Sequence record: PQ567651.1
DNA length: 64,000 nt
Reading direction: 5' to 3' (one strand)
Origin: Escherichia phage cardinal
The translations under genes were made by a program, and so were the position numbers. Numbering within the stretch: position 1 is the stretch's first letter; every line of letters starts with the position of its first letter. The notes below the pieces were generated by a model. That model ran no database searches and was not told the DNA's origin. It worked only from the letters and a program-made list of their open reading frames with translations. Below are positions 29,496 to 29,601 of the stretch, in pieces.

Positions 29496-29601
29496 AGCCT
29501 AGTTATGGAATCGAACCATATTTCGTATTTAGTTAGACAAAGCGGTCTAACATATTTTTCAGGCTTTGATGGCCTCGGAATTACCAAATACCCTACTAGG
29601 C
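29496..29601 (-). tRNA. unusually long (about 106 nt) tRNA-like element with UCA-type anticodon loop
   Basis: Perfect acceptor GCCTAGT/ACTAGGC, T-arm TATGG-TTCGATT-CCATA, hairpin AGGC-CATCAAA-GCCT, then a 7-bp hairpin GTTAGAC-CGCTTT-GTCTAAC where a variable arm would be. No CCA encoded. Confidence 0.3.

Follow-up and report, generated by a model that had tools for sequence, protein, structure and literature searches.

Does the long tRNA-like element in the tRNA cluster of Escherichia phage cardinal read UGA, as the center of its anticodon-like loop would allow, is it a damaged tRNA, or does it represent an RNA of another kind? The element lies on the minus strand at positions 29496-29601 of a stretch of 64,000 nucleotides (nt) from this phage (sequence record PQ567651.1), the whole of which is referred to below as the window. 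The source is a phi92-like coliphage (Justusliebigvirus, Stephanstirmvirinae); over the 1.6 kb that were compared, it is 99.9% identical to Escherichia phage muut. The element belongs to a conserved and previously undescribed family of tRNA-shaped RNAs with an extra arm, of about 100-110 nt, which occur in the tRNA clusters of lytic phages of the Enterobacterales. We consider it most likely to be tRNA-derived and to act as a non-standard tRNA or a tRNA mimic, and not an efficient UGA-decoding suppressor, and assign a probability of roughly 0.5 to this reading.

Structure of the element and its conservation

The initial annotation of this locus described an element of about 106 nt with a perfect acceptor stem of 7 base pairs (bp) and a canonical T-arm, a 4-bp anticodon-like hairpin whose loop CAUCAAA is centered on UCA, and a 7-bp hairpin in the place of the variable arm. 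Its coordinates were right, and each of these parts was recognized again on the minus strand, from 29601 down to 29496; the UCA-centered loop is evident in this sequence and is not constant in the family. The parts of the element, read from the sequence unless indicated otherwise, are the following.

29496-29601, minus strand: whole tRNA-like RNA gene, 106 nt, from G1 (29601) to the discriminator U73 (29496)
29495-29493, minus strand: 3' tail UCA, in place of an encoded CCA
29595-29601, minus strand: 5' strand of the acceptor stem, GCCUAGU, with 7 of 7 Watson-Crick pairs to 29497-29503
29497-29503, minus strand: 3' strand of the acceptor stem, ACUAGGC, partner of 29595-29601
29577-29592, minus strand: D-arm, stem GGUA/UUCC and loop UUUGGUAA with G18 and G19; one U-U mismatch in this lineage
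29561-29575, minus strand: hairpin 1, the equivalent of the anticodon arm, with a 4-bp stem AGGC/GCCU and loop CAUCAAA
29571-29565, minus strand: loop of hairpin 1, with UCA at 29569-29567 and A at the equivalent of position 33
29576 and 29560, minus strand: G26 and G44, invariant, bordering hairpin 1
29552-29559, minus strand: single-stranded 5' flank of the extra arm, AAAAAUAU, conserved; family consensus GAAAA(A)UA, of which the initial G is G44
29532-29551, minus strand: hairpin 2, the extra or "variable" arm, GUUAGAC-CGCUUU-GUCUAAC, 7 bp with loop CGCUUU (sequence, fold and terminator scan)
29521-29531, minus strand: single-stranded 3' flank, UAAAUACGAAA; family consensus (U/G)AAUACAUAG, the hallmark motif of the family (alignments A2 and A3)
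29504-29520, minus strand: T-arm, UAUGG-UUCGAUU-CCAUA

Between the acceptor stem and the D-arm stand A8 and G9, and some 40 nt occupy the place of the variable loop. With canonical tRNAs the element shares the 7-bp acceptor stem, the 5-bp T-stem, a T-Psi-C-type loop and a D-arm in which G18 and G19 pair with the T-loop. It lacks the canonical anticodon arm, a 5-bp stem with a 7-nt loop containing U33; the stem of hairpin 1 is one pair shorter (4 bp), and A replaces U at the equivalent of U33. At its 3' end, the phi92-like copy reads UUCA, not UCCA (discriminator U followed by UCA). The minimum free energy fold of the element gives the acceptor stem, the T-arm and hairpin 2, and draws the region of the D-arm and hairpin 1 differently. 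Hairpin 1 is recovered in the centroid structure only, and the folding z-score is only -2.5.

Comparison among lineages that are only about 70% identical reveals compensatory changes in all five helices. In a MAFFT alignment of 15 sequences, on which the cloverleaf was drawn by hand, 98.7% of the pairs are standard and 13 of 20 show double compensatory changes; none of 500 shuffles was as good, and sliding the partners by 1-3 columns reduced pairing to 34-47%. A covariance model built from the homologs (R1) detects the element in the window with 97.4 bits (29493-29601, E ~1e-23) and finds no second such site there. The R1-based alignment (A3; 32 hits, 23 of them distinct) has 97.7% standard pair cells and double changes in 16 of 23 pairs, again with no equal among 500 shuffles and with 32-49% pairing for slid partners. 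Its acceptor stem shows double compensatory changes in 4 of 7 pairs and its T-arm compensatory changes in 3 of 5, all cells of both helices being paired. The stem of hairpin 1 covaries among A:U, G:C and C:G, and hairpin 2 has double compensatory changes in all four modeled pairs, its sequence, loop and length (4-9 bp) being free.

The same five helices are predicted independently by RNAalifold, which adds U14:A21 and U15:A20 and thereby extends the D-stem to 6 bp with a 4-nt loop; these two pairs never vary. The elbow pair G19:C56 becomes U19:A56 in nine distinct sequences, where the D-loop UUUGUCAA is always accompanied by the T-loop UUAGAUU, and GG D-loops always occur with UUCGAUU or a close UUCGA variant. 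Constant in all lineages are G1:C72 (and nearly so C2:G71), A8, G10:C25, the D/T elbow, G26 and G44, and the segments GAAAA(A) after G44 and (U/G)AAUACAUAG before the T-stem are near-invariant in alignments A2 and A3. By inspection, no consistent covariation was seen for a kink-turn, for pairing between the two flanks of the extra arm or for pairing between the loop of hairpin 1 and the D-loop. The aligned sequences thus provide strong evidence of folding into a tRNA-like L-shape that is under purifying selection.

The compensatory changes in the helices and in the elbow pair rule out a decayed pseudogene, one of the options raised initially, since the element is conserved in this manner across four phage lineages. 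The broader proposal, that of a functionless tRNA, either decaying or interrupted by a neutral insertion, would account for the failure of standard tRNA finders, for the U-U mismatch, A/U-rich T-stem and degenerate CCA of this lineage, and for the presence of other defective-looking tRNA-like genes in the same cluster. Double compensatory changes in five helices and in G19:C56 at about 70% identity speak against it, as do the spread between unrelated phage families and the phi92-like group, in which the only differences seen lie in the loop of hairpin 2 and in the 3' tail. Within the "insertion", the flanks are conserved and the stem covaries. As a description, a tRNA with an insertion (about 40 nt at the variable loop) is apt; as an accident it is not, since the insertion is conserved family-wide. 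We regard a functionless remnant as very improbable.

Standard models do not recognize the window copy. ARAGORN makes no call at 29496-29601, the Rfam search at the gathering threshold does not report it, and RF00005 does not match it even when hits up to E = 10 are admitted. Scoring with covariance models, those for selenocysteine tRNA (tRNA-Sec) included, had been named at the outset as a check, and the window copy exceeds the threshold of none of the Rfam tRNA models. Rfam holds no model for the family. The element thus fails as a standard tRNA, yet its sub-threshold scores do not thereby make it noise.

When the element is searched alone, its best Rfam match is tRNA-Sec (RF01852), with 29.4 bits where the threshold is 47. 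A tRNA of the selenocysteine type (tRNA-Sec or allo-tRNA-like), reading UGA by the Sec or a Sec-like pathway, could be inferred from this match (39.0 bits for the copy in Erwinia phage Hena1), from the UCA loop and long extra arm, and from a D-arm that may also be drawn with 6 bp and a loop of 4 nt. These scores stay below threshold and in the range of ordinary tRNAs, an ordinary tRNA-Ser reaching 40.2 bits and the tRNA-Ser and tRNA-Tyr genes of the same clusters 34-40. The acceptor/T arrangement is 7/5 and not 8/5, the discriminator U73 and not G73, the anticodon stem 4 bp and not 6 bp, and position 33 an A. In addition, A8 lies opposite the 3' base of the T-stem, an A here and a C in Hena1, with which it is unable to pair, and most family members do not carry UCA. 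The element, for which a Sec-like tRNA had been one of the options raised initially, accordingly does not belong to the tRNA-Sec family, and a Sec-type role is the least credible of the readings weighed here.

Two other identities were tried and rejected. A tmRNA-like tag open reading frame (ORF) in the extra region (AUG UUA GAC CGC UUU GUC UAA) has neither its frame nor its start conserved, and G3:U70 is absent. A mimic of tmRNA or YrlA RNA is discounted because neither model matches the element, position 3:70 is C:G and not G:U, and the ends form an acceptor stem and not a Ro-binding stem.

A phage RNA family with a variable anticodon-like loop

BLAST searches with the element retrieved 30 phi92-like records at 98-100% identity. 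Further matches, at about 71% identity, were the Erwinia phages Hena1 and pEa_SNUABM_55, of the Vequintavirinae, and Salmonella phage UTK0002, which is N4-like. Two T5-like phages of Pectobacterium, DU_PP_V and My1, came to light through pattern and profile searches, as did three IMG/VR contigs. One of these contigs matched, mostly in part, 179 phage records by BLAST, belonging to rV5-like Vequintavirus, Seunavirus, Mydovirus and Avunavirus phages of Escherichia, Salmonella, Klebsiella, Cronobacter, Proteus, Raoultella and Enterobacter. After a scan of metagenomes, the family comprises 37 distinct sequences. The hallmark motif in the region of UAAAUACGAAA served as the working search pattern. 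The patterns GGCCATCAAAGCC...TAAATAC and GAACTAACAGTA...TAAATAC were too specific, yielding close relatives only; CGAGG...CCTGAAAAT was too loose, with random matches only and no new member among the matches listed, and TAAATAC...GGTTCGANTCC, likewise too loose, returned mostly ordinary tRNAs but revealed DU_PP_V.

No exact match to the family motif was found in 185,579 species-representative bacterial and archaeal genomes, nor any BLAST match to a family member in 5,426 complete E. coli genomes. A host origin or prophage copies were therefore rejected for these two genome sets, and the family is phage-specific as far as the genome searches go. Its members occur in myo-, podo- and siphoviruses, always among tRNA genes, and no shared protein gene was found beside them across the phage families compared. 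The element is thus horizontally mobile between unrelated phage families. Origin from the phage's own tRNAs was also considered and dropped, as no tRNA of the window is notably similar to the core of the element. The existence, structure and distribution of the family are direct observations on these sequences.

Current labels of the homologs include tRNA-TERM, Stop(tta), tRNA-OTHER, tRNA-???(atcc), tRNA-Lys and hypothetical protein, or the place is left blank; the Hena1 copy is annotated "tRNA-TERM / tRNA-sup(tca)". Small "hypothetical protein" coding sequences lie over or antisense to the family gene in phages SSE121 (L202:185-268) and 41 (L205:291-482), and likewise in Mydo (gp258/gp257, L209:326-527) and in the window (29505-29807, plus strand); these are almost certainly annotation artifacts. 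The window example, an ORF of 100 codons, crosses three RNA genes in antisense orientation and is surely spurious. In the rV5 genome paper, six tRNAs are listed, the family gene not among them (PMC3606486), and no description of the family RNA was found in the literature on rV5, phi92, Hena1 and the Vequintavirinae.

The loop of hairpin 1 varies between lineages and is less well conserved than the single-stranded flanks of the extra arm. CAUCAAA or UAUCAAA is found in the window, Hena1, UTK0002 and several metagenomic lineages, and CAUCCAA in My1. Seunavirus, Mydovirus and DU_PP_V have 6-nt loops (CAUCCA, CAGCCA, CCUCCA, CUUCCA) on a 5-bp stem, the rV5-like phages UUUUUAA and Avunavirus UUUAUAA. 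The anticodon equivalents are thus UCA, UCC, GCC, UUU and UAU, most members not having UCA. The UCC group has C35, C36 and A37 throughout, with variation at positions 33 and 34. Across the family the equivalent of position 33 is A, C or U, and the arm measures 15-16 nt instead of 17. All UCA-, UCC- and GCC-type members end in UCCA (discriminator and tail) except the phi92-like lineage, with UUCA or UCCC; the UUU type has A followed by CCU or CAU, and the UAU type C or U followed by ACA.

Is the RNA nevertheless a genuine, aberrant decoding tRNA, in this phage a UGA suppressor of the glycine or possibly the cysteine type? By this account it would derive from a tRNA-Gly(UCC)-like family through a C36-to-A change, be charged by a host synthetase by way of U73, G1:C72, C2:G71 and C35, and cause low-level UGA read-through during infection. 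The 7-nt loop CAUCAAA, with UCA in the center and A37/A38, indeed departs from the tRNA-Sec consensus CUUCAAA at position 33 alone; UCC or GCC occurs in sister lineages, in which C35, C36 and A37 are invariant and 33 and 34 vary. G1:C72, C2:G71 and U73, the glycine identity elements of E. coli, are conserved, CCA is encoded in most members, the UUU-type members have A73 and pass the Rfam tRNA threshold, and annotation tools label homologs as tRNA-sup(tca), Stop(tta) or tRNA-Lys. Finally, phage slur16 has no canonical tRNA-Lys and 4MG no canonical tRNA-Gly.

Against efficient decoding stands first the anticodon arm itself. The position of the universally conserved U33 is A, C or U, the stem has 4 bp here, many relatives have 6-nt loops, and loop length and sequence vary family-wide; with its short stem and 6-nt loops, the geometry is unlike that of any known ribosomal decoder. 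The window copy is scored neither by ARAGORN nor by the Rfam tRNA model, and its 3' end is UUCA instead of UCCA. Complementarity with canonical tRNAs holds for slur16 and 4MG and fails for Mydo, Hena1 and the window, where a canonical tRNA-Gly(UCC) coexists with the element. There is also no footprint in the use of stop codons: TGA ends 11 of the 68 ORFs of at least 100 codons in the window, with in-frame extensions of only 1-34 codons, and its share of stops is 0.35 in UCA-type Hena1 versus 0.39 in Mydo, 0.31 in 4MG and 0.26 in slur16 (small samples), so that no TGA avoidance was seen in the UCA-type phages and no long in-frame extension follows TGA. We therefore hold a decoding role, UGA suppression included, to be possible but disfavored.

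An anticodon arm that is short, lacks U33 and varies among lineages points to the tRNA body and the extra arm, and not a fixed anticodon, as the common target of selection, and this favors a tRNA mimic or non-standard tRNA over an efficient suppressor. According to this favored reading, the RNA would be transcribed together with tRNA-Met and tRNA-Leu(UAA) and excised by the host enzymes for tRNA end processing, RNase P at the 5' end and 3' trimming with CCA repair; most members encode UCCA. It would then fold into the L-shape, with its acceptor/T helix and D/T elbow, and carry an additional structured arm with conserved single-stranded flanks. The glycine-type acceptor set (G1:C72, C2:G71, U73) is kept, and aminoacylation may occur. 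In this form it could engage a tRNA-binding host factor common to the Enterobacterales, as a decoy, a sink or a special carrier; candidate partners would be a synthetase, an enzyme that modifies or processes tRNAs, or a toxin or nuclease directed against them. We infer processing, charging and mimicry, and take the partner to be more probably a host factor on account of the spread across phage families with no shared neighboring protein gene.

Several points weigh against mimicry, a role reached by exclusion. The loops retain the appearance of anticodon loops (7 nt in many members, with A37 and A38), and the changes among them yield meaningful anticodons: glycine is preserved from UCC to GCC, and UUU goes with A73, the lysine discriminator. 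The rV5-type and Avunavirus-type relatives pass RF00005 (35.5 and 33.1 bits, threshold 29). Together with the absence of canonical tRNA-Lys from the rV5-like slur16 and of tRNA-Gly from 4MG, the appearance of the loops and the rV5-type score would fit a real decoding tRNA chassis. A related proposal is that of a mobile, non-canonical chassis which is charged and re-targeted by swaps of anticodon and discriminator, to glycine with UCC/GCC and U73, to lysine with UUU and A73, and to UCA here. Its role would be that of a nuclease-resistant decoy or replacement against a tRNA-targeting defense, or of programmed low-level UGA read-through. We consider this proposal unlikely, although if true it would represent a hitherto undescribed tRNA architecture and phage-host tactic.

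The interest of a mimic or non-standard tRNA lies partly in the current re-reading of phage tRNAs as weapons against tRNA-cleaving immunity and not as simple codon supplements. The family is matched, in whole or in part, by BLAST in roughly two hundred enterobacterial phage records, and its carriers include candidates for therapy among rV5-, phi92- and PVP-SE1-like phages. A family model would clean up the inconsistent annotations, of which the "suppressor tRNA" flags matter for safety screens in phage therapy. The system is also tractable, consisting of a single small gene, E. coli K-12 hosts and phages of the BASEL collection.

The tRNA cluster around the element

The tRNA cluster extends over 26928-29796 on the minus strand and contains 16 tRNAs according to ARAGORN, with 14 matches at the Rfam gathering score. 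The element sits in an unannotated gap of 325 nt between tRNA-Leu(UAA) and tRNA-Ser(UGA); the record of phage muut likewise has no annotation at the corresponding gap. Its immediate surroundings include the following features.

29604-29689, minus strand: tRNA-Leu(UAA) with encoded CCA, upstream of the element and ending 2 nt before G1 (ARAGORN, Rfam, sequence)
29435-29463, minus strand: sigma-70-like promoter TTGACA-17-TATAGT with TG, just downstream of the element (pattern match, 11/12 in the consensus scan)
30129-30100, minus strand: sigma-70-like promoter match upstream of the unit of tRNA-Met, tRNA-Leu and the element (pattern match)

The end of tRNA-Leu(UAA) only 2 nt before G1 implies that the element would be co-transcribed with it and undergo tRNA-type end processing. 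All 16 canonical tRNA genes of the cluster encode their 3' CCA; the element alone has UCA, which is off by one base. The promoter-like site at 29463-29435 would open the next unit, making the element the last gene of its own transcription unit. Within the cluster (26700-30600, minus strand) 19 sigma-70-like matches were counted, compared with 10.4 expected from shuffles, and further strong matches lie at 29323-29294 and 28022-27993 on the minus strand. The pattern of the cluster suggests many short transcription units, as annotated for T5.

Such a position raises the alternative that the element acts mainly in cis within the tRNA operon, either as a processing or 3'-stabilizing module recognized by RNase P or as an antisense terminator made of hairpin 2 and a U-run on the opposite strand. 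In this phage, the element would indeed close its unit, with an A/U-rich spacer and a new promoter-like site downstream of it. The terminator scan flags plus-strand positions 29532-29551, which represent hairpin 2 read backwards plus ATATTTTT, and a variable stem beside a conserved T-run is a terminator-like pattern. However, no plus-strand genes converge on the cluster in the window, hairpin 2 has just 4 bp in rV5-type members, and in other phages the family gene lies mid-cluster, with tRNA-Thr and tRNA-Leu or tRNA-Ser and tRNA-Thr as neighbors. A processing signal, moreover, would not need the elbow pair, G26/G44, hairpin 1 or an encoded CCA. A mainly cis-acting role is hence improbable.

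Other odd tRNA genes were observed in the cluster. A second non-canonical tRNA-like gene at 29345-29423 (minus strand) has a 7-bp acceptor stem, a normal T-arm and the loop CUUCUAA (UCU, Arg), with 4 nt instead of a D-arm and a variable region of about 22 nt containing a small hairpin. It scores 38.6 bits with the Rfam tRNA model, is missed by ARAGORN and has its own strong promoter-like site (29463-29435); in phage PATM it is labeled "tRNA-Undet", and related phages have a canonical tRNA-Arg(UCU) at that place. At 27012-27072 (minus strand), between tRNA-Ile and tRNA-Met, lies a D-arm-less tRNA-like sequence of 61 nt with the loop CUCCAAA (CCA, Trp), which scores 22.9 bits against a threshold of 29 and may be an armless tRNA or a remnant. 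The tRNA-Phe(GAA) gene at 27570-27644 (minus strand) has the unusual T-arm GGAUCGUUACC instead of GGUUCGAAUCC.

A gene similar to this tRNA-Phe(GAA), unannotated and missed by ARAGORN, stands just upstream of the family member in DU_PP_V and My1 (L122:2428-2501 and L123:2188-2261). In Mydovirus and Seunavirus, an odd tRNA likewise lies directly upstream, between the family member and tRNA-Thr; ARAGORN calls it "tRNA-???(ga)" in Mydo (L225:10129-10203) and tRNA-Arg(gcg) in 4MG (L223:9671-9744).

Comparison with known RNAs

Among ordinary tRNAs, the class II tRNAs (Ser, Leu, Tyr) share with the element a cloverleaf with an extra stem-loop between anticodon arm and T-arm, and they are the best non-family hits of R1. 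Their variable region comprises about 13-21 nt with 1-2 unpaired flanking bases, and their discriminator is G73 or A73. The element, in contrast, has a variable region of about 40 nt with 8-11 conserved unpaired nt on each side of the hairpin, U73, A8 and U14 in place of U8 and A14, an anticodon stem of 4 bp and no U33.

With tRNA-Gly(UCC) the element has in common G1:C72, C2:G71 and U73, the T-loop UUCGAUU and, in the My1 member, a loop of the form C-N-U-C-C-A-A. The C36-to-A change creates opal (UGA) suppressors of glyT in E. coli, and the UCA and UCC forms of the family differ by the same change. Nevertheless, no relationship to the phage's own tRNA-Gly(UCC) is detectable, and the 40-nt extra region, the short stem and A33 set the element apart.

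The resemblance to tRNA-Sec and the Sec-like or allo-tRNAs (PMC5389517) comprises UCA, a long extra arm and a possible D-arm of 6 bp with a 4-nt loop. Their reported acceptor/T arrangements are 8/5, 9/4, 8/4 or 9/3, whereas that of the element is 7/5, with U73 and an anticodon that is not conserved in the family.

Phage tRNAs are reported to evade or neutralize tRNA-targeting defenses (PMC10264068), and the tRNA-Lys of T5 to act against PARIS (PMC11464382). The family resembles them in its tRNA shape and in its altered anticodon loops, the rV5-type loop UUUUUAA being tRNA-Lys-like, and it may likewise act against host factors. The defense-related tRNAs are otherwise canonical and functional, with a tested phenotype, whereas the family is known from its sequences.

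The element comes nearest to the tRNA-like stable RNAs of phages T5 and T4. The T5 record (AY543070, 28-42 kb) annotates eight "stable RNAs with unknown functions": RNAI, RNAIII, RNAIV, RNA1, RNA2, RNA2H, RNA3 and RNAX. Like the element, they are small non-coding RNAs in a phage tRNA cluster, with an acceptor stem, a T-arm and large non-tRNA insertions, and RNAI and RNAIII have nearly its length (106-107 nt). The species 1 and 2 RNAs of phage T4 (rnaC, rnaD), in the T4 tRNA region, are of the same kind, and for about 50 years these tRNA-like stable RNAs of T4 and T5 have had no assigned function. In RNA1 of T5, the 3' part folds as a tRNA-like unit (AGGAACA...UGUUCCU) and the 5' part resembles the 5' half of tRNA-Leu. 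Homology to the T5 RNAs was rejected: there is no likeness by eye, and R1 detects no family member in the tRNA region of T5, where its best hits, at most 30 bits, are class II tRNAs of the ordinary kind. Unlike the T5 RNAs, the family keeps a complete D-arm, the elbow pair and a hairpin resembling an anticodon arm, and is much more tRNA-like. By location and anatomy, the element belongs with these RNAs to the descriptive class of tRNA-like RNAs of phage tRNA clusters, which is a class and not a homology family.

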